A stretch of DNA of 41,044 nt from an uncultured Erysipelotrichaceae bacterium. Lineage in GTDB: Bacteria; Bacillota_I; Bacilli_A; RF39; UBA660. Under the pieces are notes generated by a model. The model searched no databases. It worked only from the letters and a program-made list of their open reading frames with translations, and was not told the DNA's origin. Position numbers and translations under genes: made by a program. Numbering within the stretch: position 1 is the first letter of the stretch; each line of letters begins with the position of its first letter. The stretch lies in contig CACZTI010000050.1 in assembly GCA_902783985.1 (NCBI GenBank), forward strand, positions 1 through 41,044, written 5' to 3'. This document shows positions 10,337-33,189 of this stretch, in pieces.

Positions 10337-10822
10337 ATGAAGAAGAAAATTATTGAAATTGTATTAGTTTTATTTATTATTTTTGAATTTATGGCAACAT
10401 ATTGTTTATTATCATTTGATAATTATAATGTTTTAAATACCAATAACAATTATTATTTAATCTATAATGGTAATGAATTATTTAAGAAAGGATCTCTTAT
10501 CAAATTTAAAAAAATTGATAATTGTGTAAATCTTCAAGAAGGAAAGGAAGTATATTATACTTTAAGTCCTGATGTTGTTTTAAAAGGTGAAGTTTCTAAA
10601 AGAGATGAAAATATGGATAATGATGCCATGATTATCTCAGGTAATTATATTAAATGTGATAGAATGTTAGGTAATGAATTTAAAGAATACAAAAATATTG
10701 GTAGTTTTATTAATTTTATAACTAATAAAAAAGTATATTTCTTTTTAATATTATTACCAACAATTGGTTTATTGGTATATGAAATATTCTTAATAAAAAA
10801 CAATATTAAGAAAGAAAACTAA
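10337..10822 (+). CDS. SipW-shaped membrane protein lacking the catalytic Ser/His (pseudo-signal-peptidase)
   Basis: Start moved to ATG 10337 (GGAAGG RBS). It has an N-terminal TM, a soluble domain of about 110 aa and a C-terminal TM (FFLILLPTIGLLVYEIF), as in SipW. NGNELFKKGSLIKFKK occupies the place of SGSMEP..GSLILVKE, and there is no THR(I/V) motif. Confidence 0.55.
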   Translation: MKKKIIEIVLVLFIIFEFMATYCLLSFDNYNVLNTNNNYYLIYNGNELFKKGSLIKFKKIDNCVNLQEGKEVYYTLSPDVVLKGEVSKRDENMDNDAMIISGNYIKCDRMLGNEFKEYKNIGSFINFITNKKVYFFLILLPTIGLLVYEIFLIKNNIKKEN

Positions 10823-19227: not shown

Positions 19228-22200
19228 ATGAAAAAGATTGTTAAAAATAAAAGTTTATTTAATCGTTTAATAGTAATTTTTTTCGTTATTGCTATTATCC
19301 TTTTTTTGTCAATAAATTTATTTAGGACTTTTTCTGAAGATGTCTCTGATACTAGTTCTCATATTACTGGAGACACTGTTTATGTTAATGATTTAGTTAG
19401 TGACTATAATTATTATTTAGGAATGAATTATGTAGGTGATATTGATTCCAACAGTGTTTCATATAGTGATAGTAATCTATCTAGTGTAACAATTGTTTAT
19501 CATGGATATGATAGTAGTGTTAATAATTGTGATGATACTTTATGTGGTTATGTTTCTTTAACAGAAAGACAAAACAAATTTATATATTATAAATATTATC
19601 CCGTTGTTAATAATGAAATGACCATCGAACTTATTGATAATCCATTTAGTGATCGCCCAACTAATAAAGCTTTTGGTGGATGGACTAGTACTGATGGTGT
19701 TATTACAAGAAATAATAATACTAATGTTCAAACAATCAAGGTTGTTAAATCAGGAAATAATCAAGTAGTTAATATTTATGCTAATTGGATAAATGCTCAT
19801 GTTGTTTATTTAAAAGGTAGTTTAGGTGATGATAATTTTGATGGTAGTACAGAAGATGATGCTGTAGCTTCCTGGGGAAGAGCATTCTCTCTTTTAGAAA
19901 GTAATAGTACAAATCCAGATGATCGTGAAAGAAATATCATTGTTTTAACTGGTGATATTGCAATGAGTCCAAATTACTCTCAAACTGTAACTCATACTTA
20001 TGATATAACTGTTAATTATAATGATAAAACAAATTTTGATGATACTCCTCATATTATTGAATATAAGAATGGAAATACACGATATGCCCTAACTGATAAT
20101 AATGGAGTTAGTTATACAACATTATCTTTAAATACCGAACCCCTTGATAATACCAAATGGATAATTAGAGAAGAAAATGGTTCATATACCATTCAAAACT
20201 ATGATACTAATAGATATTTATCGTATAGTGTTAATGGTAGTAATGTCACTTTAAATATGACTAATACTAGTACATTATGGAAATATGATAATAATTTAAG
20301 AAAATTCTATGTACCAATTGATTTATCTTATTATGAATACACTTATAATGATGTAAATAATATTACAAGTGGAGAAGAATATTTAATAACTAGTGGTTCA
20401 GAGAATAATACTTTAAATAGTAATTTAGCTAATATTAGTTTCAATAATCGTAATTTTAATAATAATGCCTTATGGACATTTACTAATGAAAATGGTGGAT
20501 ACTCCATAAAAAATGGTAATAATTATTTATCAAGTGTTGATGGTGGTAATAATGGAGCTGCTCTATATTTTTCAAGTTCTCTGGCAACTTGGCGTTATGA
20601 TGATACCAATCATGCATTTTATAGACAAACATTAATTAATTATGTAACTTATTCCTATAATCATGCTAATTATATTAATAGTGGAAGTAATTATTATATT
20701 ACAAATGGTGATAATAATAACTTAATTGCTTTATCAGTAAATGGTAATAATTTAACTTATTTTGATATGACAGATAATGAACCAACTAATACTAGTTCTT
20801 GGTTATTAAATAATTATAATGGTGGTTATACTATAAGAAATGTAAGTAATAATAGATATTTATATTGTAGTAATAATGGAACTTTATCTACTAATACTAA
20901 TTCAAGAACATGGATGTATGATGCTAATAATCATCGTTTATATTATCAAAGAAATTATAATAATAGATATTATCTTCGATATAACAATGGAACTTGGTCT
21001 ACAACAACTAATGCTAATCAAGCTACAGAATTATATTTTACAACAAGAGTTACTAATAGTAGTTATCAAAATACTAATGTATATTTATCATTTGATAATA
21101 ACAGGTGGGGTTTAGTTGATACTTTAGGGGATAATACGACAATAACTTTAAAAACTGTTGAAAGTAATTATGTTAATAATACAGTTAATTATTATGTAAG
21201 ATATAATAATGGTTTTGAAATAAGTGATATTGATTCTAATAATCGATTAAATTTTGCAACATATACTATTGATAGAGAAATAAGAACTACTAATACTGGT
21301 AATATTGGTACTAATAACTATAATACAAATAATAATAATCTTGCGGTAACTATTACCAGTCTTTATAATCACATTGATTATCGTAATAATGCTTCAATTG
21401 ATTTAACAGATGATGTTAATAATGGATATGATTTTGTATCTGCTTATAATGATTTACAAATGGAATATTTAAGTATTAAAGCGAATGGATTTAATGCAAT
21501 TAGTAATGATACAACCACAACTAATTATAGTGGAACATATGCAGCTTTAGAAGGAAATTACCATAATGTTAGAATAGGAAGAGGAATGAATACTACTTCT
21601 TGGACTAATGATTCCGCATCTATTTTTAGTTTTGCTTATGGTGGAAGTGATAGTACATCTCTTGGAAGTAGTAATAATCACAATAATGACTATCGTTTTG
21701 TTATTGAAACAGGAAGATATTCATCAGTTATGGGTGTTCGTATTGCTAATGATGGAAATTATAGTAATTATAATACAGTTGATTATTATGGCAAAATGAC
21801 CTTTGTTTTAGGTAATGATTATGATCGAGTATCAAATATTCATAATCGTCTTCAAGTATATTATCGTGCAGGTAGTTCTAATAATTATGGTATTGTTGGT
21901 AAAACTAATTCTAATAATCCCGCTTATTTAATTAATGTTAAAAGTGGTAATATAGGATATGATTATTTTAATAATAATCCGAGTGATGATAATAGAGCTT
22001 ACTCTGGACTTTATGTTGGTGGACTAACTGTTAATGCCACGAATTCCACTACTGATATTTCACCAAGAGTTTTAGTAATGGAAGGAGGCTATATCGCCAA
22101 TATTGTTGGTGGTCTTCGTCTTTATGAAAATTATCAAAACACGGTTCCTACAAAGATTTATGTTAAAGGTGGTACTATCTCTAATATTGTAGGAGGTGCC

Positions 22201-25200
22201 GGTGTATCAACAACATATGGTAATCGATATATTTCTGTTACTGGTGGTAGTATTGAATATAGTGTATCTGGTGGTAGTAATGGAGTTTTTGCTACTGATT
22301 CCACAGGACAACAAAGTGGTAAATTACAAGGTAATAGTTATGTTCATATAGGTGGAAATGCAAGTATTGGAACCAATAATTCTGGTGAATTATATGGAGT
22401 TAGTTATGGTTCTGTATTAGGAGCTGGTAATGGTAATAGTGATGTTCCAAATTCTGGTCAAGTTATTAAAACCAATGTTTTCATAAGTGGTGATGCTAAA
22501 ATATATGGAAGTGTCTATGGTGGTGGAAATTATGGTAATGTTACCGATGATGTTCACTTAGATATTTCAGGTGGTACTATTTATGGAAGTGTTTATGGTG
22601 GGGCTAATAAAAATGGTATCGGAAGTGTTACTATTCAAGAAGGAATGGGAGAGACAGTATCCTATGTTAATCATGAAAATATTACATCTGGTAATGGATA
22701 CTTGATTGTTAAAGAAAATGGTTCAACAATGAATGCTTTATCTTTAAATAATAATTCTATTACTAATAGTGTTTTAGGAACAACCACAAGTGCCCCTTTA
22801 AGAAGTTTTTGGACAATTACTAGTCAAGATAATGGTTATACTATTAAGAATGTTAGTAATAATATGTATTTAACACATGAAACAGGTTTAAATAATCCAA
22901 CATTAAAATTAGATACTAATCCAGCGGTATGGCAATATGATACAAGTAATAAATCCTTCTATAAACAAGCAAGTTATTTTAATGATTATACAGTATCTTA
23001 TAACTTTAGTACATCAATGATTACCAATGAAGAAATATTATTAACAAATTCTAATTCTAATACCGCTAATTCAATGGCAATTACTAATAATAATTTATCT
23101 AATATAACTTTAAATAGTACTAGTATTCCGTTGGATAATTTATGGATTATTGAAGAAAATAATGGTGAATATGCTATTAAAAATGTTAATACTGGATTAT
23201 ATTTAAATATGGAATCAAGTGGTTGGTTTAATTATAATTTAACTTTAGGTAATAATCCAACATATTGGCAAAGTGATGGAAGAAACTTCTATTATGGAGC
23301 TTTCTTTAGAACATATTATTTAACATATAATAATGGTTGGACAACAACTACTACGGCATCATCAGGAACTAATTTCTATTTTGGAAAATATAATATTAAT
23401 TACAATGAAATAGAAGATACTTTCTATTTAGGATTTAATAATAACTGGGTATTAACAAGAACTAATACTTCGGTTAATAGTTTAACTTTTAAAACACAGA
23501 ATGTTTCTACAAACTTTGTTCAAACAGCAACCAATAGATTAAATGGTGATGTAACAATCAATATGACAGGAGGAGAGATTAAGAAAACTCTTTATGGTGG
23601 ATCTTGTGAAAAAGGTAATGTTGCAGGTGATGTTATAATCAATATTTTAGGTGGTACTATTAATTATGATGATAATAATCATGGAAGTTTATTTGGTGGT
23701 GGATATGGTGAAGAAACATCTATCGCTGGTAATATAAATGTTTCCATTGAAGATAATAATAAAGTCATGATTAAAGGAGATTCCTATGGTGGAAGTGCTT
23801 TAGGAACAGTAATTGGTAATATTCAATTTGATATTGATGATACTTCAAGTACTCCTACAATTACAATAGATGGTGATACATATTGTGGAAGTATGGGAAA
23901 TAAACTAGATAGTACCTTAGGTAACATTATGGGAAATTGTTCTCTAAATATTAAAGAAGGAGACTTTACTAAAAACTTCTATGGTGGAAATAATTCTGGT
24001 GGTGGAGCCTATGGTAATATCACGGTTACTACTGGTGGATATAATACTGATGCTAAAATAGGTAATGTCTATGGTGGTGGAAATGAAGCTGATTCACTAA
24101 GTAATAATGTTACAGTTTATGTTAAAGATAAATCTAATATAACCAATGTCTTTGGTGGTGGTAATTTAGCTACTGTTTCTAATACCAATGTTTATTTACA
24201 AGGTGGTACTGCTACCAATACCTTTGGTGGTAGTAATAAAAGTGGAGCTGATGTAACCAATGTTTATTTACAAAATGGTAATTTCACTAATATTTATGGT
24301 GGAAGTAATGAATTAGGTGAAGTATTAGCAACTAATATTACTTTAACAGGAGGTAGAGCGACTACTGTTTATGGTGGTAATAATATTGGTGGAACAACAA
24401 CAAATAGTAATGTTTTATTAAATGGATCTAATGTTGATACTATTTATGGTGGAGGAAATGAAGCCCAAACAACAACAACCATTGTTAATATTAATAATGG
24501 TACAGCAAGTAATGTCTATGGTGGTGGTAATAAAGCTTTAACTGATACGACTAATGTTAATTTAAATGGTGGAACAATTACTAATACTTATGGTGGTGGT
24601 AATGAAGCTGGTATTATTACCAAAACCAATGTTAAATTAGCAGGAAGCACTACAACCAACATTTTTGGTGGAAGTAATACAAGTGGTGTTGTACCAATAA
24701 GTAATGTTTTAGTAAACTCTGGAACATCTTCTAATATCTATGGTGGTAACAATGTTGGTGGAAGTACTACAGAATCTTTTGTAACAATGAATGGTGGTAC
24801 TATTAATACTATTTATGGTGGAGGTTTACTTGCAAGTACTGGTAAAACCAATGTTACAATAAATAATTCTTTAACCAATGTTTATGGTGGTGGAGAATCT
24901 GCTAATGTAACAGGTAGTAGTAATATCCAAATGAATAGTGGAACAATAAGTAATATTTATGGTGGAAGTAATACAAGTGGTGTTGTTAATAATAGTAATA
25001 TAACTATTGATGGTGGAACAATAACAACCATTTATGGTGGTAATAATGCTGGTGGAAGTACAACCGTTAGTAACTTAAATATTAATGATGGTACCATTAA
25101 TACTATTTATGGTGGTGGATCAAGAGCAAATCATGGAACATCAAATATTAATTTTAATACAGTATCTAATAATTCGGTATCCGCTATTTATGGTGGTGGT

Positions 25201-28200
25201 ATGGAAGCATCTTGTACTACATCAAATGTAAATTTAATTAAAGGAAAAGCCAATTATGTTTATGGTGGAAGTAATACAAGTGGTGTAGTAACTACAGCAA
25301 ATGTTAATATAACAGGTGGTACATATACAGACATTTATGGTGGAAATAACGCTGGTGGTACAACAACTAATACCTTTATTGATTATCAAAATGCTACAGT
25401 ATCTAATATCTATGGTGGTGGAAATAACGCTGATGTATCAGGAAATACTAGTGTTAAATTAGCAAATGGTACAATATCTAATAATATTTTTGGTGGTGGA
25501 AATAACGCTAAAGTATTAGGAAATACCAATGTTTTAATTAATGGAACTACTATTAATGGTAGTGCTTATGCTGGTGGAAATGGTGCTAGTGCCACAGTGG
25601 TTAAAGATACATATATCTTAGTAGAAGGAAATACTAATATTTTAAATCATGTCTTTGGTGGTGGAAACGCTGCTTATACTGGTATTGTTACCAATAATAA
25701 TTCCAAGGGATCAGTAAATATTATTGGTGGAAGAATAAATGGCAATGTTTATGGTGGTGCTAATACATCAGTTCTATATGGTGATACCACAGTAAATATT
25801 GGTTATAATGCGGTTTTAAATAATAATGCTAATTTAGATTCTAGTACTCTTTCAAAAGGAGATATTTATATTGGTGGAACTGTCTTTGGTGGAGGAGAAG
25901 CTAACGCTAGTGGATCAGAAGACTATGACTACTCATTTATTAGTGTAACAGTTGGTATTATTATAAATATTGATGGAAGTAATCATGATCATTTTGATAT
26001 ATCTGGTTCCATCTTTGGAAGTGGTAACGCTTCAAGTACCACTGGTTATAGTAGAATATATATAAGTAATTATGGTAGTTTAGATGATGTTAAAGAAAAT
26101 ATTTCCATTCAAAGAGCAGATTTAGTTGTTTTAAATAATACTAATATTGAACTATCTGGAGCAACCGATAGAACTAATGAATACTCTAGTGTCTTATTTA
26201 GTGTAAGTCGTATTGATGAGTTAGATTTAGTTAATAATAGTACCATTTATTTCCAAAATGGGGCTAATCTTCTTAAGAAATTTAGAAGTTTAAAAGATAA
26301 TAATACTTTAGCAAGTGTTGTAATTGATGAAGATAATGGTACAGTAGTAAAAAATGTTAATAATCGAATCTATATGTTAGAAGATAAAATCTTAAATATT
26401 GCAACAAATCAAAATATCACATCATATGGTGAAGTAGATGGAATGACTTTCTTAGGAATGTATAAAAAAGAAAGAACAGGAGAAATAGTTGTTGCAATGT
26501 ATGATACTAGTTATAATTATGGTGATCATGCTGATGATAATGATATTTATTATTTCTCTGGAGGAACTTATGTTTTAGGATTACATGAAGATAATCATAA
26601 TATCGAAGTAGATGGTTTCTATTCTAATTTTGCATCAACGGAAGAAGGAGAAGAAAATACATTAGAAGTTAAATATATTGTTCCTACACCAGAAGATTCT
26701 AGTTACTATATGTGGATTATTGGTACATCAGTAACTTCTTATGAAGTAGACCTTGTTGCTTCAAAATATTCAACACTAGGTACTTATGAACTTCCTTTAA
26801 TTGATTATACAACGGCTAATACCTATTTTTCTGTTGTTGGATTCCAATATGAAAATTTAAATAGTGAAGTATCATTAGTATCTCCTAATAGTATTCCAAG
26901 AATTGCAAGTAATTCCAATGATGCTGATAATAAATTAGGATTATCCATAAGACCTGGTACAGAAGGATGGATTACTTTAGGATCAACTGACTTCTTAACT
27001 GAAAGTGAAAATAATATTTCTGGTACCACAACATACTATACAGAAAACTCATCCTTAGCTCCTAGTTTACTATTCTATTTATATCACTCAAAAAATTTAG
27101 CAACCGATGGTAATTTAGGTTATGTAACAATTAAATTACTTGCTATAACTCCAATTAATGATTTGGAAAAAGAAACAACCAGAATTGATATTGTTGTTAA
27201 TTTATCAAGAGCAATATATCAAGGTGATTTCTATGAAGCTGCTATGACACCAGGAAGACAATATGAATTCTTCTCGTCAAGTCCAACAAGAATTACATCA
27301 AAAAGTAGTTTAAGTGCTTATTATGCTTTATATGTAAATTCAGATACTAATATTTATCGTAATGGATATCATCATGCTTTAGTATCAGATAAGTTATTAC
27401 CTGTAAATACTAAAATAACAATGATTGATTTTGCAAGTGGTACAAGTCCTGAATATTATTACTATATTACAAACGCTCAAGATAATATTGATATTATTAA
27501 TAAATATAATTTATATTTAACATATTCCTATGATTTAAGTAAATTTATTAAAATGGGAAGTTCTAGTACAAATAATACTTATGATGAAGAAACATTAAAG
27601 AATATTTATTATAATTCGGAAAACAAAATGGCCGTAGAAGAATTTATCTTTATTGTTGATTTCTGTGATGCTGAAATAGCAAGTAATTATTTAGAAACAT
27701 CATTATTAATGGAAATTAGAACTTCTACAGAACAAACTATTTATTCTGTTTTAGGTACCCAACATGATAGTATGAAATATGATTTATATTATAATTCAGA
27801 TGGTATTATTCATGTAGATGCCGAGTTAAATAATAATGTTATTCATATAGGTAATGATACTACATTAAGAGTAACAACATCTTTTGAACAAAAGAAAGAT
27901 AATAGTAACAATAATATTATTGATACTACATATTATGATAATAAATTAGGTATTAAATTAACGATATATGATGAAAACAATAATCAAGTAAATGGTGTGG
28001 ATTTAATGGGTGTATCATTTGTATATAATGGAATAACTCATTATCCGAGAAGTGATGGTACAGTAAGAATTAATTTAGCAGAGAAAGTCGCTAATGTTTA
28101 TTCAGCTATTGTTATTGATACTAGTGATGGTAACTTATCTGGTGGTAATTATACTTTAAAAGTAGAATCATTCTATTCACCTGATGGTATATATTATGGT

Positions 28201-28644
28201 ATTGAATCATCTGATGAATGTGATGTTCCATTTAAAATAATGGAAAAGAATTATGGATTAGATATTGATATTGATGATAAATATTTAATTATTGATCATG
28301 AAACAAGTAATAATTTAGATGGTAATAAAGATTTTAATTTCAATATTTTATATTCATCTACCCTAGATAATCCAAATCTTCGTATTGCCCTATTTAGAAG
28401 AACTTATAATAATATATATGATTTATCATATAATCTTGTAGATGTTAAAGATTATCTTGATGGAACACTAAATACTACAAGTGATGATAAAGTATATAAA
28501 TTCTTTACTAATCCAGGATCTAATGTAAATAATAGTTATACTTTAAAAGATAATTTAAAAACCGGAACATATAAGTTAGTAATATATCTATATGATGGTG
28601 ATGTAAATGTTGGTAATATCTATCAATACTTTGTTATCAAATAA
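19228..28644 (+). CDS. Giant (3138 aa) exported protein with ricin-type beta-trefoil-like blocks and a long parallel beta-helix repeat region; putative adhesin
   Basis: AGGAGG RBS. The N-terminal signal-anchor ends in NLFRTFSED. It has two blocks of W.I....G.Y.I.N....(R)YL.....W.YD modules (about 20060-21280 and 22660-23520) and two beta-helix blocks rich in (I/V)(Y/F)GG(G/S)N (about 22080-22640 and 23540-26070). The C-terminal third is beta-sandwich-like. There is no LPXTG. Confidence 0.85.
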   Translation: MKKIVKNKSLFNRLIVIFFVIAIILFLSINLFRTFSEDVSDTSSHITGDTVYVNDLVSDYNYYLGMNYVGDIDSNSVSYSDSNLSSVTIVYHGYDSSVNNCDDTLCGYVSLTERQNKFIYYKYYPVVNNEMTIELIDNPFSDRPTNKAFGGWTSTDGVITRNNNTNVQTIKVVKSGNNQVVNIYANWINAHVVYLKGSLGDDNFDGSTEDDAVASWGRAFSLLESNSTNPDDRERNIIVLTGDIAMSPNYSQTVTHTYDITVNYNDKTNFDDTPHIIEYKNGNTRYALTDNNGVSYTTLSLNTEPLDNTKWIIREENGSYTIQNYDTNRYLSYSVNGSNVTLNMTNTSTLWKYDNNLRKFYVPIDLSYYEYTYNDVNNITSGEEYLITSGSENNTLNSNLANISFNNRNFNNNALWTFTNENGGYSIKNGNNYLSSVDGGNNGAALYFSSSLATWRYDDTNHAFYRQTLINYVTYSYNHANYINSGSNYYITNGDNNNLIALSVNGNNLTYFDMTDNEPTNTSSWLLNNYNGGYTIRNVSNNRYLYCSNNGTLSTNTNSRTWMYDANNHRLYYQRNYNNRYYLRYNNGTWSTTTNANQATELYFTTRVTNSSYQNTNVYLSFDNNRWGLVDTLGDNTTITLKTVESNYVNNTVNYYVRYNNGFEISDIDSNNRLNFATYTIDREIRTTNTGNIGTNNYNTNNNNLAVTITSLYNHIDYRNNASIDLTDDVNNGYDFVSAYNDLQMEYLSIKANGFNAISNDTTTTNYSGTYAALEGNYHNVRIGRGMNTTSWTNDSASIFSFAYGGSDSTSLGSSNNHNNDYRFVIETGRYSSVMGVRIANDGNYSNYNTVDYYGKMTFVLGNDYDRVSNIHNRLQVYYRAGSSNNYGIVGKTNSNNPAYLINVKSGNIGYDYFNNNPSDDNRAYSGLYVGGLTVNATNSTTDISPRVLVMEGGYIANIVGGLRLYENYQNTVPTKIYVKGGTISNIVGGAGVSTTYGNRYISVTGGSIEYSVSGGSNGVFATDSTGQQSGKLQGNSYVHIGGNASIGTNNSGELYGVSYGSVLGAGNGNSDVPNSGQVIKTNVFISGDAKIYGSVYGGGNYGNVTDDVHLDISGGTIYGSVYGGANKNGIGSVTIQEGMGETVSYVNHENITSGNGYLIVKENGSTMNALSLNNNSITNSVLGTTTSAPLRSFWTITSQDNGYTIKNVSNNMYLTHETGLNNPTLKLDTNPAVWQYDTSNKSFYKQASYFNDYTVSYNFSTSMITNEEILLTNSNSNTANSMAITNNNLSNITLNSTSIPLDNLWIIEENNGEYAIKNVNTGLYLNMESSGWFNYNLTLGNNPTYWQSDGRNFYYGAFFRTYYLTYNNGWTTTTTASSGTNFYFGKYNINYNEIEDTFYLGFNNNWVLTRTNTSVNSLTFKTQNVSTNFVQTATNRLNGDVTINMTGGEIKKTLYGGSCEKGNVAGDVIINILGGTINYDDNNHGSLFGGGYGEETSIAGNINVSIEDNNKVMIKGDSYGGSALGTVIGNIQFDIDDTSSTPTITIDGDTYCGSMGNKLDSTLGNIMGNCSLNIKEGDFTKNFYGGNNSGGGAYGNITVTTGGYNTDAKIGNVYGGGNEADSLSNNVTVYVKDKSNITNVFGGGNLATVSNTNVYLQGGTATNTFGGSNKSGADVTNVYLQNGNFTNIYGGSNELGEVLATNITLTGGRATTVYGGNNIGGTTTNSNVLLNGSNVDTIYGGGNEAQTTTTIVNINNGTASNVYGGGNKALTDTTNVNLNGGTITNTYGGGNEAGIITKTNVKLAGSTTTNIFGGSNTSGVVPISNVLVNSGTSSNIYGGNNVGGSTTESFVTMNGGTINTIYGGGLLASTGKTNVTINNSLTNVYGGGESANVTGSSNIQMNSGTISNIYGGSNTSGVVNNSNITIDGGTITTIYGGNNAGGSTTVSNLNINDGTINTIYGGGSRANHGTSNINFNTVSNNSVSAIYGGGMEASCTTSNVNLIKGKANYVYGGSNTSGVVTTANVNITGGTYTDIYGGNNAGGTTTNTFIDYQNATVSNIYGGGNNADVSGNTSVKLANGTISNNIFGGGNNAKVLGNTNVLINGTTINGSAYAGGNGASATVVKDTYILVEGNTNILNHVFGGGNAAYTGIVTNNNSKGSVNIIGGRINGNVYGGANTSVLYGDTTVNIGYNAVLNNNANLDSSTLSKGDIYIGGTVFGGGEANASGSEDYDYSFISVTVGIIINIDGSNHDHFDISGSIFGSGNASSTTGYSRIYISNYGSLDDVKENISIQRADLVVLNNTNIELSGATDRTNEYSSVLFSVSRIDELDLVNNSTIYFQNGANLLKKFRSLKDNNTLASVVIDEDNGTVVKNVNNRIYMLEDKILNIATNQNITSYGEVDGMTFLGMYKKERTGEIVVAMYDTSYNYGDHADDNDIYYFSGGTYVLGLHEDNHNIEVDGFYSNFASTEEGEENTLEVKYIVPTPEDSSYYMWIIGTSVTSYEVDLVASKYSTLGTYELPLIDYTTANTYFSVVGFQYENLNSEVSLVSPNSIPRIASNSNDADNKLGLSIRPGTEGWITLGSTDFLTESENNISGTTTYYTENSSLAPSLLFYLYHSKNLATDGNLGYVTIKLLAITPINDLEKETTRIDIVVNLSRAIYQGDFYEAAMTPGRQYEFFSSSPTRITSKSSLSAYYALYVNSDTNIYRNGYHHALVSDKLLPVNTKITMIDFASGTSPEYYYYITNAQDNIDIINKYNLYLTYSYDLSKFIKMGSSSTNNTYDEETLKNIYYNSENKMAVEEFIFIVDFCDAEIASNYLETSLLMEIRTSTEQTIYSVLGTQHDSMKYDLYYNSDGIIHVDAELNNNVIHIGNDTTLRVTTSFEQKKDNSNNNIIDTTYYDNKLGIKLTIYDENNNQVNGVDLMGVSFVYNGITHYPRSDGTVRINLAEKVANVYSAIVIDTSDGNLSGGNYTLKVESFYSPDGIYYGIESSDECDVPFKIMEKNYGLDIDIDDKYLIIDHETSNNLDGNKDFNFNILYSSTLDNPNLRIALFRRTYNNIYDLSYNLVDVKDYLDGTLNTTSDDKVYKFFTNPGSNVNNSYTLKDNLKTGTYKLVIYLYDGDVNVGNIYQYFVIK
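23540..26070 (+). repeat. More than 35 tandem repeats of about 24-25 aa (72-75 nt) of the form x(I/V)(Y/F)GG(G/S)Nxxxxxx(T/S)N(V/I)x(L/I)xGG, with a higher-order period of about 300 nt
   Basis: The 23-mer ggtggaagtaatacaagtggtgt recurs at 24667, 24961 and 25264 (spacings 294 and 303 nt). The rung types GGSNTSG / GGNN(A/V)GG / GGG.. / GGG.. cycle in the same order. Confidence 0.9.
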
Positions 28645-28707: not shown

Positions 28708-30042
28708 ATGGAAGAAAAGAAAAAGAAATTTTTAATAAAAAGTTATAAACAAATGTTTATGGTAATAGGAATATTTACCTTAATTTTATTAGTTGGTGGA
28801 ACAACATATGCATTTTTTAATTATACAAGAACCGGTTCTGCCAATACTTTAAGAACAGGAAGAATTTATTTTAGTACAGAACAAACAAATCAAAATACGA
28901 TTACATTAAATAATATTTTTCCAATGACTAAAGAACAAGCACTTGCTGATACAAGTACAAATGGCACATTAGTAGTAACCTTTACTGGAGATACCACATA
29001 TACTGAAGGAATAGAATATTTATTAACAATAGATTCAGTAACAAGAACAGCCAATGTACCAATAAGTTTAATCATGGATGTTAATGTAGAATCAAGAACA
29101 GCAGGTGAAACACCAACAGTAACCACATTAACTGAAAATGTTGATTATTATTCAGCAAGAGAAGCTAAAACAACATCAATGTATAAAGCAGAAGGAAATG
29201 ATACCACAATAAATAGTACAACACATAAAGTAATAACTGATATCGAAACAGGAAAATATTTACTTGCAGGATACATTAAAAGTGGAACAGATGTTGTAAA
29301 TGGAACAGTAACCATAAAAGCATTTATAGATGCTGATAATCTTTTAATTACTGATACCCCAAATGATCAATCTAAAGCTCCAACTGGATATACAGATGGA
29401 ACAGTAACAACAGGAAAAACTGTCATATCAACAACTGATTGGAATTCTCTACAATCAACGGGAGTAAGTTTTAAAGTAAAAGGAGAAGCAAATCCAGGAA
29501 TCTGGGTACCAGAACCAAGTCAAGGAACAATTGATTCATGTCCGGGATGTAAATTTATTTACTCAACAACTCAAATGTGGACAACATGGAATACTGAAAG
29601 TGAAACACCAACACAAATAACAAGTGGATATAGTGAAAATTATAATGATATCGTAACAAGTAGTGGAAAGAATTACTTTTTAGGAGTGGTAACAAATAAT
29701 AATAATGAAGTAACAAATGACTATGCATGTGGAATAAAAGATGGAACACCATTTTGTATCGAAGGAACAAATGATGGATCAAAATATACAGCAAATCAAG
29801 GACTAATAAATGGAGCAAGTCTATGGAATAACACATGTAATATACAAACTGGTAAAGGTAGTGTTGAAGTAACAATATGTGGACCATGGGATGACACCTC
29901 TGTTTCTGCTGCTGCTGGCTCTGATGGCATTGCGGATGCTGGCGTTGGTGATGACGACTACTGTGAAGTGGACATATATGGCCGTTTCATGTGCTATGGG
30001 TCTGTTCATGAGGAGCCTGCGCCTCTTGGACCACAGTCGTAG
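28708..30042 (+). CDS. Exported protein (444 aa): the same N-terminal TasA-like module as the LRR protein, fused to a Cys-rich C-terminal domain
   Basis: AGGAG RBS. GGTTYAFFNYTRTGSANTL matches GGVTYAFFNYTRTGETNLL in 3150... Further shared blocks are (L/I)NN(I/L)FP, TGDTTYTEGIEY / TGNTDYEEGLEY, Y(L/F)L(A/T)GYI and (V/I)SFK(V/I)K.EA. The last 170 aa contain 10 Cys. The last 54 codons (about 162 nt) are G+C-rich. Confidence 0.8.
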   Translation: MEEKKKKFLIKSYKQMFMVIGIFTLILLVGGTTYAFFNYTRTGSANTLRTGRIYFSTEQTNQNTITLNNIFPMTKEQALADTSTNGTLVVTFTGDTTYTEGIEYLLTIDSVTRTANVPISLIMDVNVESRTAGETPTVTTLTENVDYYSAREAKTTSMYKAEGNDTTINSTTHKVITDIETGKYLLAGYIKSGTDVVNGTVTIKAFIDADNLLITDTPNDQSKAPTGYTDGTVTTGKTVISTTDWNSLQSTGVSFKVKGEANPGIWVPEPSQGTIDSCPGCKFIYSTTQMWTTWNTESETPTQITSGYSENYNDIVTSSGKNYFLGVVTNNNNEVTNDYACGIKDGTPFCIEGTNDGSKYTANQGLINGASLWNNTCNIQTGKGSVEVTICGPWDDTSVSAAAGSDGIADAGVGDDDYCEVDIYGRFMCYGSVHEEPAPLGPQS

Positions 30043-30205
30043 TCCCGCCAGCTGATCCAATCTCACAATCTTGAATCAAGCATTTTCGTTAAGAAAATGT
30101 GCATGAGGACAAAATCTTTTAGATTTTGGTCCGAATAAAGTGCTGAACGAAAGACGAGGCACAAGGGGTCTCTTGGCACTATTATATAAATAGTGCCAAG
30201 AGATA
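29881..30205. other. G+C-rich compositional island spanning the 3' end of the 444-aa gene and about 160 nt downstream
   Basis: My hand counts are 34/60, 30/60 and 35/60 G+C for 29881-30060, against about 25-30% in the flanks. The downstream part carries at least three perfect or near-perfect hairpins. Confidence 0.7.
30169..30203 (+). terminator. 15-bp perfect stem-loop (possible terminator of the 444-aa gene, or part of a structured RNA)
   Basis: tctcttggcactatt-atata-aatagtgccaagaga. The downstream sequence is A/T-rich but is not a clean T-run. Confidence 0.4.
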
Positions 30206-30363
30206 ATAATTATGTTATAAAAAACTAGAGTTCTTTATAAAGGGATATTCTAATTTATGTGGGCTGCTTTTATCTTGAATAAATTAATAAAATACATGTA
30301 AAATATGTATTTTTATTTTGTTTTATGATATAATTTTTTTATAAATACTTGGAAGGTGAAGAT

Positions 30364-32061: not shown

Positions 32062-32607
32062 ATGAAGGTTATAGGAAATATTTTTAGAACAATTTTATTT
32101 GCATATTTAGTTATTTGTGCTTTTGCAACTTTTTGTTTATTAAAAACAAATGATAAGGGTGTTGTACAAATTGGTGATACATCACTTGTTGTTATGGAAA
32201 ATGATGTATTAAATTATTATAAAAAAGGAGATTTAGTTATTGTTAAATATCCTGATTTAAATAGTATCGGTAAGGGAGAACCAGTATTATTTTATGATAC
32301 ATCATTTAATAAAAATACTGTAACACTTGCTAAAGTTACAGATAATAAGTATGTTAATGAAAAAGAACACACATTCTCATATAAAAATGAAAGTAATGAA
32401 GATAAAGCTTTTTCTAGTGAATATTTAATTGGAAAAGTAAATGGAAGTAGTAAGATGGGATTTGTTGGTAGTGTTTTAAAGACAATGACATCAAGATGGG
32501 GATTTTTATTCTTAGTTATTTTACCATTTCTAATTGTATTTTTATATGAAGTTTATGTTATTGTTAAGGAATTTAAAAAGACTCTTAAAGAAGTAAGAGA
32601 AGAGTAA
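32062..32607 (+). CDS. SipW-shaped membrane protein lacking the catalytic Ser/His (pseudo-signal-peptidase), copy 2
   Basis: N-terminal TM, soluble domain and C-terminal TM (WGFLFLVILPFLIVFLYEVYV). SLVVMENDVLNYYKKGDLVIVKY occupies the place of SGSMEP...GSLILVKE. TLAKVT occupies the place of THRIV. Confidence 0.55.
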   Translation: MKVIGNIFRTILFAYLVICAFATFCLLKTNDKGVVQIGDTSLVVMENDVLNYYKKGDLVIVKYPDLNSIGKGEPVLFYDTSFNKNTVTLAKVTDNKYVNEKEHTFSYKNESNEDKAFSSEYLIGKVNGSSKMGFVGSVLKTMTSRWGFLFLVILPFLIVFLYEVYVIVKEFKKTLKEVREE

Positions 32608-32610
32608 TTT

Positions 32611-33189
32611 ATGCGAAAAATACTACTTTTAGTCGTATTATTATTTCTTTCTTTAACTATTATGGAAATCAGTAATACTTTTGGTTTATTTGAAACTAAT
32701 AATGTTATAACAGTAGATAATAATATTGCTAAATGGCAAATTAAAGTTAATAATAGTTTGATTAAAGATCCTGTTCATTTTACAGTTAATAATTATAATA
32801 TTGATAGTGATTCCAATGTTAAAGAAGGATTAATAGCTCCTGGAGTTGGAGCTTATTTTGATATTGATATTGATCCTAATAATACATCAGTATCCATTAG
32901 ATATGATATTACTTTTGATTTAACAGGATTAGAAAATGATAAGATAAAAATAGTTAATATTGAAGAATTAGGTGGCAATACTTTAGTTAATAATAATGAT
33001 ACTTATACGGGTATTATCCCTATTAATAATAGTTCTATTCATCATATTAGAGTACATATTGAATGGGAAAATGATGAAGAAAATAATGAAATTGATTCAA
33101 AGTTTGGGGTTACAGGTGAAAAAGAAATTAATATCGCTACGAATATTAAATTTAGTCAATATTTAGGGGAAACAATTACAAATAATTAA
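32611..33189 (+). CDS. TasA/camelysin-like exported protein (192 aa)
   Basis: The signal peptide ends in SNTFGLFETNN. IAKWQIKVNN, LIAPGVGAYFDIDIDPNN and IRVHIEWENDEEN. It is a paralogue of 16641..17225. Confidence 0.7.
   Translation: MRKILLLVVLLFLSLTIMEISNTFGLFETNNVITVDNNIAKWQIKVNNSLIKDPVHFTVNNYNIDSDSNVKEGLIAPGVGAYFDIDIDPNNTSVSIRYDITFDLTGLENDKIKIVNIEELGGNTLVNNNDTYTGIIPINNSSIHHIRVHIEWENDEENNEIDSKFGVTGEKEINIATNIKFSQYLGETITNN

Follow-up and report, generated by a model that had tools for sequence, protein, structure and literature searches.

A probable retroelement-type variable repeat in the G+C-rich 3' end of a surface-protein gene of an uncultured Erysipelotrichaceae bacterium

The window analyzed here, the whole stretch of 41,044 nucleotides of contig CACZTI010000050.1 (GenBank assembly GCA_902783985.1; an uncultured Erysipelotrichaceae bacterium of the GTDB lineage RF39, UBA660), carries on its forward strand a 444-aa gene (28708-30042) for a putative secreted surface protein, whose end coincides with a G+C-rich, adenine-poor island. 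The findings of the present study make it probable that this island, together with the boundary segment and the hairpins that follow it, is a variable repeat (VR) of the type found in diversity-generating retroelements (DGRs), written by adenine mutagenesis at some time. In a DGR, a reverse transcriptase (RT) copies a non-coding template repeat (TR) into cDNA while misreading the template adenines, and the cDNA replaces the VR, the replacement being guided by a 3' boundary element, the initiation of mutagenic homing (IMH) sequence, and a nearby hairpin. Because the template adenines are scrambled, constant codons must avoid A and would be written as TCT, GTT, GCT, GGC, or TGC, and adenines would be confined to the codons meant to vary, which would be AAY (Y, pyrimidine) in the template. 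In a genome of 25% G+C, the outcome would be a G+C-rich, A-poor patch with “foreign” codons that terminates at the stop codon, with the conserved boundary segment and the hairpins coming next.

On an alignment of 43 distinct homologous protein tails, from which hypervariable and scaffold columns were defined independently of the window DNA, the VR core (29899-30003, forward strand) spans 35 codons, in which 19 scaffold codons free of adenine are interspersed with 16 hypervariable ones, and the tail consensus reads CGPWDNSGSxSAxAxSxGxVxAGVGxxxxCxVxxxGxFxCxES, where x is hypervariable. The 16 hypervariable columns have entropies of 2.2-3.5 bits and hold 8-15 residue types, and the columns between them are near-invariant. 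D, Y, S, G, N, and F dominate the hypervariable columns, at which K, E, Q, M, and W together make up 36 of 715 residues, compared with 405 of 2798 upstream. In five VR DNAs, 69 of 79 hypervariable codons end in T or C, and the residue spectrum at these positions is of the NNY type. Pairwise differences among the same five VRs are 0.62, 0.54, and 0.35 at the first, second, and third positions of hypervariable codons, and 0.03, 0.06, and 0.17 at those of scaffold codons. From the core to the stop codon runs a C-terminal tail of variable length (30004-30039, forward strand; VHEEPAPLGPQS), whose type differs among the homologues.

The host assembly (1.31 Mb in 101 contigs, 94.6% complete) has a G+C content of 25.2%, and the G+C fraction of 120-bp scanning windows across the genome averages 0.252 (standard deviation 0.059, n = 10879), with 0.18% of them at 0.47 or above. 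A first-pass annotation, made from the letters alone, had described a G+C-rich island over the end of a 444-aa ORF with its stop codon at 30040-30042; ORF analysis confirmed the gene, and the 120-bp scan bore out the island, giving 0.525 at 29880-29999 and 0.542 at 29940-30059 against 0.16-0.37 in the surroundings, with up to 52-56% over positions 29881-30060. The island, with a peak of 0.558, is one of 33 such islands across the 1.31 Mb. The shift in composition is strand-asymmetric: coding-strand A falls from 0.437 in the gene body to 0.167 in 29881-30042, whereas T is 0.257 and 0.290, respectively, so that A is depleted and T is not. The codon choice of the tail, which had been called foreign, is indeed unusual, as A ends 119 of the 165 four-fold codons of the gene body and none of the 16 in the scaffold of the cassette (Fisher p = 8.5e-9). 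Codons with any A number 0 of 19 in the scaffold, 13 of 16 among the hypervariable codons, and 338 of 387 in the gene body; A is restricted in the window VR to the diversified codons, as in a DGR target. In each of the six cassettes compared (the window, the four other VR DNAs, and a non-coding copy described below), the scaffold bases include 0-2 A per 57.

An abrupt step in G+C accompanied by a shift in codon use is also what a foreign 3' end would produce, whether it came from a G+C-richer donor by horizontal transfer or recombination, or from an assembly chimera, and the first-pass annotation had listed these origins. Both are, however, hardly credible. Donor DNA of higher G+C was rejected as the source of the island because A alone is depleted and T is not, and because AT-rich orthologues and paralogues share the G+C-rich scaffold: G002 and G007, two genomes of the same genus, carry it, as do a metagenome contig and 50 database proteins. 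In the sequencing-run evidence, which consists of Logan contigs, the runs containing the window are bovine and sheep gut metagenomes, and contigs from runs of other studies span both edges of the island (X4, 993 nt over 29789-30167; X6, 586 nt over 29694-30074); three other assemblies have the same junction. In addition, the boundary lies within one compact modeled domain, with a mean predicted local distance difference test score (pLDDT) of 93.9.

A template-like cassette lies elsewhere in the genome, in which three copies of the cassette were found: the window VR; a first copy on contig C98, which is the tail of a paralogous gene at the contig start; and a second, non-coding copy at C98:~480-666, ~250 nt beyond the first. 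Five hypervariable codons of C98 copy 2 are AAC or AAT; Asn occurs at these codons in 1, 4, 9, 3, and 2 of 42-43 VRs, and by simple arithmetic the chance that one VR has all five is ~1.5e-6. Over codons 1-17, copy 2 differs from the VR of G007 at 7 of its 11 adenines and at 0 of 40 other bases, from the VR of the metagenome contig L012 at 6/11 and 0/40, from C98 copy 1 at 6/11 and 1/40, from the VR of G002 at 6/11 and 5/40, and from the window VR at 8/11 and 6/40. A template and a DGR target should differ at adenines only or almost only, and this relation was found just for these 17 codons of copy 2 in comparison with the VRs of G007, L012, and copy 1; the window VR, of which copy 2 is not the template, does not show it and thus fails to qualify fully for the class under the strict TR/VR rule.

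Hypervariation confined to the cassette, with the rest of the gene unchanged, was found in relatives of the C98 paralogue type rather than in the window allele. At the protein level, at which all of these pairs were compared, P0010 and P0017 are identical at 367/367 upstream residues and 17/17 scaffold positions and agree at 4/16 hypervariable positions, and P0009 and P0010 are identical at 362/367 upstream residues and at 5/16 hypervariable ones. Among 28 pairs with at least 90% upstream identity, identity averages 0.28 over the hypervariable and 0.89 over the scaffold columns, and two pairs have identical tails. The protein P0002 (433 aa) is the same as the window protein through ...SVSAAAGSDG and then continues into an unrelated 26-residue tail; it is either another cassette allele with a frame change or the product of a contig junction inside the cassette.

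The same pattern might arise in an ordinary constrained domain under strong diversifying selection, with the composition as a by-product of the Gly/Ala/Val/Ser/Cys content or of mRNA structure and the additional copies as pseudogene fragments. The first-pass annotation had reasoned that a G+C-rich tail whose protein sequence is conserved in AT-rich relatives would make the island simply a constrained domain, and this holds for the scaffold, which is kept in relatives, but not for the 16 interleaved positions, which are hypervariable. The domain family is indeed wider than the G+C-rich sub-clade, a search of 1.84 billion proteins giving 257 cluster representatives at E <= 1e-3, and its distant members end in a similar tail whose A depletion is slight or absent (A = 0.36 in L104), with no template-like copy in the 500 nt of downstream sequence inspected, which suggests that the DGR signature marks a sub-clade of the family. 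Amino acid content, however, does not explain the synonymous choice against A-ending four-fold codons, nor does the explanation account for two proteins that are identical over all 367 upstream residues and different at 12 of 16 cassette positions, or pseudogene decay for five AAY codons placed exactly at hypervariable sites. We regard an ordinary constrained domain as decidedly unlikely.

The 3' boundary of the cassette is formed by an IMH-like segment (30034-30074, forward strand), which includes the stop codon and a G+C-rich stretch. The homology between the window and C98 copy 2 spans 29898-30074, and 30034-30074 is 98% identical over 41 nt to C98:626-666, the 3' end of the non-coding cassette, with one mismatch by eye. 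Hairpin 1 (30081-30099), with a 7-bp stem and a 5-nt loop, starts 6 nt past the end of the homology with this template-like cassette and is a candidate DGR target-site hairpin or cruciform; it is kept in 4/4 related loci, in 2/4 of which one pair is changed on both sides. Passages of the paper by Guo et al. (PMC3240598) describe a hairpin of Bordetella phage that stands right after the VR, past the TR/VR homology, and is required, its structure rather than its sequence being what matters. Hairpin 2 (30107-30132; 11 pairs with one bulge) has changed letters that still pair in C98 copy 1 (by eye), whereas in L012 no more than the 5' arm and the beginning of the 3' arm is left and in G007 the hairpin is truncated; the consensus fold of four loci does not predict it. 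The stem of hairpin 3 (30169-30203) is perfect over 15 bp, and the transcription unit probably ends at it; in other loci this place is taken by a different hairpin, and for want of a T-run after the stem a terminator scan called no site there. All three hairpins fold as the first-pass annotation had proposed, and the long-range ggacca/tggtcc pairing that it had added is absent from both the minimum-energy and the centroid folds. Folded as DNA, 30036-30210 reaches -32.4 kcal/mol (z = -5.86), which 0 of 200 shuffles equaled, and a promoter/terminator scan gave no terminator-type site and no more promoter-like sites than in shuffles. The downstream hairpins fit a DGR target-site or a terminator role; that they serve target recognition we only infer, given how rich in A+T their stems are and how short the G+C stretch is.

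This unusually high degree of structure, and a downstream stretch of ~70-100 nt that is conserved in four loci and includes one compensatory pair, would also be expected if a structured non-coding RNA or a 3' untranslated element were the main feature and the coding tail incidental; the first-pass annotation had named such an RNA or element as one option. The peak of G+C lies inside the ORF, however, and G002 lacks the whole downstream element while retaining the cassette. Covariation was found for 1/13 predicted pairs in the four sequences, a search of Rfam at E <= 10 gave three chance-level matches, all far under the gathering scores, and ARAGORN found no tRNA or tmRNA gene in the window. 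A structured RNA is unsupported for the coding part and, as the main feature, very unlikely.

Beyond the hairpins, a flank at 30239-30262 (forward strand) aligns with the sequence directly before the template-like C98 cassette, and no cassette comes after it in the window, so that it resembles an “empty site.” The extended flank motif occurs in the genome at C50:30239 and C98:452 only. The short form of the motif was considered as a template-upstream signal and rejected, as it is common across the genome and the extended form alone is specific to the two homologous flanks. The 7-mer ATCTTGA is present at the far junction in both loci (window 30239-30280 and C98 452-500), and from the alignment it looks as if a cassette has been precisely lost or gained at that flank.

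The genome has a canonical DGR of its own on contig C29, where the VR (66-194), the TR (519-644), an Avd-like ORF (762-1178), and the RT gene (1159-2631) are arranged in a row, the target gene being cut by the contig start. At this locus 20/23 mismatches between TR and VR are at adenines. The RT gene is the single RVT_1 gene of the genome (66.9 and 65.4 bits in two profile searches), and its product has, by eye, an IGxxxSQ motif, which we take to be a DGR hallmark; the matches of the Avd-like gene to NF033474 (E = 6.9e-5) and PF22296 (E = 2.5e-4) fall short of the cut-offs. A DGR-clade RT with an Avd-like gene is present in the genome; no RT linked to a template of the window cassette family was found at the loci examined. 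In the orthologous DGR of G007 (L031), the RT is 47% identical and the target protein has 756 aa, residues 8-270 of which match the window protein. The spacer between TR and avd is conserved between C29 and G007 and is absent after C98 copy 2; because that spacer is lacking there, an action of the C29 RT on the C98 cassette was set aside as unsupported. Seven more copies of the C29 type (C12:167-298, C7:23323-23443, C86:5218-5343, C10:444-549, C88:2270-2381, C31:7400-7511, and C90:3778-3862) are 65-79% identical to the TR, with mismatches enriched at, though not exclusive to, adenines; their appearance is that of remote targets at successive stages, the first possibly live and the last decayed. 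In the C-terminal extension of the C29 RT, Pfam weakly matches residues 361-399 to MutS domain I (PF01624), with 22.4 bits where the cut-off is 20.6.

Several observations weigh against assigning the island to a DGR. Over codons 18-35, C98 copy 2 has no AAY and differs from every VR at 13-17 of 42-44 non-adenine bases, and its whole-length comparison with the window VR gives 43 mismatches (A 15/34, C 10/38, G 9/43, and T 9/47), 28 of them at bases other than A, in addition to a 15-nt gap. The cognate template of the window VR was not found, and the 94.6%-complete assembly has no further copy. The 3' flank of C98 copy 2 is nearly identical to that of the VR (98% over the 41 nt), whereas a working TR usually differs from its VR in this flank. 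The TR of the single RT is unrelated in sequence to the window cassette; no RT was found within 10 kb of the cassette-family loci examined, apart from the canonical-type L031, and none in G002 (82% complete) or G061, while G007 has one. The G+C stretch at the boundary is shorter and less pure than the (GC)14 of Bordetella phage, and the hairpin stems are A+T-rich. Selection for a paratope-like mixture of residues could account for part of the residue spectrum. Finally, in two runs of the study that gave the best holder of the window, zero-mismatch contigs (29283-29943 and 29831-29987) carry the cassette as it is in the window; these contigs end inside the cassette, at 29943 and 29987, have a depth of 4-8, and were not counted as evidence.

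The mixed character of C98 copy 2 could be explained if it were a recombinant of the 5' half of a TR and the 3' half of a VR, as its sequence suggests. Had the crossover fallen in the shared GCTGGCGTTGGT core, the sequence between the TR and VR halves would have been lost with it. Alternatively, copy 2 may be a template whose VR is not assembled. An origin as a de Bruijn-graph chimera is unlikely, because the exact runs common to the copies are too short for it (at most ~18 nt by eye). Since the only RT belongs to a DGR with a different cassette, the window VR would be an orphan in this assembly, its template having been lost or lying on unassembled or unbinned DNA, and this particular VR would have been written by such a retroelement. 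Among the explanations offered by the first-pass annotation, a retro-element target site or a recombined 3' cassette came closest, as the anatomy of the island is that of a DGR VR.

In contigs from other strains, part of the cassette is replaced. Five joints leave the window sequence at 29917-29965 and all of them resume it at 30033-30035, with both flanks aligning; one such contig has 89 different letters in place of 104 of the window. Since all joints resume at 30033-30035, the variable segment stops directly upstream of the stop codon, where the conserved boundary begins. Replacement of a whole segment in this way is also what gene conversion would bring about, with the non-coding C98 copy as a silent donor and no reverse transcription, in the style of the silent-cassette antigenic variation of Neisseria pilE/pilS, Borrelia vlsE, and Treponema tprK. 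As in those systems, an expressed surface-protein gene has a truncated, unexpressed copy nearby, and only the cassette varies; C98 copy 2 is promoterless and 5'-truncated, stands beside a paralogue, and has its 5' edge, central core, and 41-nt 3' edge in common with the expressed cassettes. Such systems, however, draw on an array of several donors, and here the genome has one extra copy, and none was found in G002 or G007. A few donors would not suffice for 8-15 residue types that vary independently at each column, that is, codon by codon, and neither the adenine-free scaffold, nor the NNY spectrum, nor the run of AAY codons in the silent copy is predicted by conversion, to whose mechanism an adenine rule is foreign. 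Cassette switching by gene conversion thus appears unlikely.

Returning to the DGR-type repeat, the window strain gives, in the two runs with zero-mismatch contigs, no sign of a current change of the cassette. Because these two runs, both from one study, share most of the cassette with the window and no cognate template was found, the window VR may be frozen while its relatives still diversify. At window position 30038, all four runs compared have A in place of C, which changes TCG into a second TAG, and the C98 cassette has the same letter.

Searches for further templates extended beyond this genome. The exact 31-nt boundary pattern had 0 matches in the genome contig collection, and a degenerate cassette pattern matched only the G002 and G007 loci among genome contigs and, in addition, one metagenome contig, near which no template was seen. 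With a degenerate pattern for an AAY template, 19 loci were matched in genome contigs and 0 in viral contigs; among the former only an RGIG5749 contig is relevant, the rest being from other phyla by title. In L074, a distant Bacilli metagenome-assembled genome (MAG) from sheep ileum, an AAY-rich non-coding cassette lies ~290 nt past the stop of a gene with the same C-terminal domain and differs from the tail of that gene at 10/22 adenines and 8/35 other bases; no RT was found in this 0.9-Mb genome. The L074 cassette (10604-10690) is truncated, and the gene before it has the shared C-terminal domain on a different N-terminal part.

The N-terminal part of the protein encoded by the window gene has a TasA/camelysin-like (SipW-type) signal region, and residues 26-81 match Peptidase_M73 weakly and under the cut-off (E = 0.024). 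Residues 1-270 have many paralogues in related genomes; this N-terminal part belongs to a very large paralogous family, with dozens of copies in each 1.3-1.5-Mb genome (G002 and G007) joined to varied C-terminal domains (loci L019-L078). The variable cassette is borne by a cysteine-rich, mostly beta C-terminal domain (residues 270-444; 29515-30039, forward strand), and the AlphaFold2 model of these residues (mean pLDDT 93.9, predicted template modeling score 0.87) places the VR core on four short strands linked by turns. That variable residues alternate with constant ones would fit one exposed face of a sheet in this model. Profile searches of Pfam and NCBIfam gave no family for this domain, nor for the canonical, C29-type DGR target. 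A sequence search of PDB gave E >= 0.098 throughout, Foldseek against PDB with the domain model a best E of 0.33, and a BFVD fold search a best E of 0.036; ESM Atlas returned RCC1_2-like clusters by features (0.91, 140 shared features) and beta-propeller-like ones by structure (TM <= 0.41), which we treated as uninformative. A C-type-lectin fold match was obtained for the canonical target and not for the window variable domain; because all fold-match scores are low, the apparent difference in fold is suggestive only. Most of the matches listed for the domain reach to or nearly to the C-terminus. The GTDB species representatives that have the domain are a few Bacilli MAGs of small genome size, several of them from sheep or rumen by isolate name, and viral contigs and a phage collection gave no relatives.

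The neighborhood of the gene (19228-28644, 32062-32607, and 32611-33189 of the window) encodes a repetitive surface protein of 3138 aa and a signal peptidase resembling SipW (E ~4e-7, below cut-offs), as well as a small protein with an N-terminal hydrophobic, signal-like segment (by eye, with no family match). These genes suggest a SipW-dependent surface-protein locus.

Compared with known DGR VRs, those of BPP-1 mtd, Treponema denticola tvpA with its remote targets, and Legionella ldtA, the window cassette likewise lies at the 3' end of a surface-protein ORF, has its adenines only in the diversified codons, AAY in a template-like copy, and NNY-type residues. A conserved 3' boundary with a hairpin just past the end of the homology may be a further likeness, judging from the passages of PMC3240598. 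The host genome has a working DGR, and non-adjacent targets are known according to passages of PMC5758913. Unlike those VRs, the window VR has in the assembly no template that differs at adenines only and no RT nearby, and, whereas passages of Roux et al. (2021; PMC8144416) describe VR regions as systematically C-type lectin (C-Lec), the window domain gave no C-type-lectin match, with low scores. The C29 DGR and its G007 counterpart share with the window a G+C-rich, A-poor cassette and, on the G007 target, the N-terminal domain family; the C29 system is also in the same genome, with several decayed or remote VR copies scattered over other contigs. The C29 type differs, however, in an unrelated cassette sequence, in another C-terminal domain, and in having TR, avd, and RT in cis with a conserved spacer, of which the window type has none.

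It is conceivable, though we hold it rather doubtful, that the window cassette represents a second, hitherto undescribed class of DGR variable domain, a small disulfide-rich beta domain that is not a C-type lectin and whose template and enzyme are not beside the target. In such a class, adenine mutagenesis would rewrite alternate strand residues and turns, and either the single RT of the genome would serve two unrelated templates or an unbinned mobile element would supply the template; recombinants of TR and VR like the C98 cassette would then mark how such systems die. Among the titles and abstracts listed for DGRs with remote targets, with the rumen, and with recombination or inactive templates, none described this domain as a DGR target.

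According to PMC8144416, DGR targets are nearly always found on C-type-lectin folds. A confidently modeled, cysteine-rich beta domain with the full sequence signature of a DGR would widen the range of scaffolds that tolerate massive variation, which is of relevance to surface recognition in gut Bacilli with tiny genomes and to protein engineering. In AT-rich genomes, a short G+C-rich, A-poor, T-normal patch that ends a surface-protein gene can flag a DGR target even when neither the RT nor the template is assembled. The apparently chimeric C98 cassette, for its part, would give a concrete picture of how a DGR may be disabled and leave frozen variable repeats behind.

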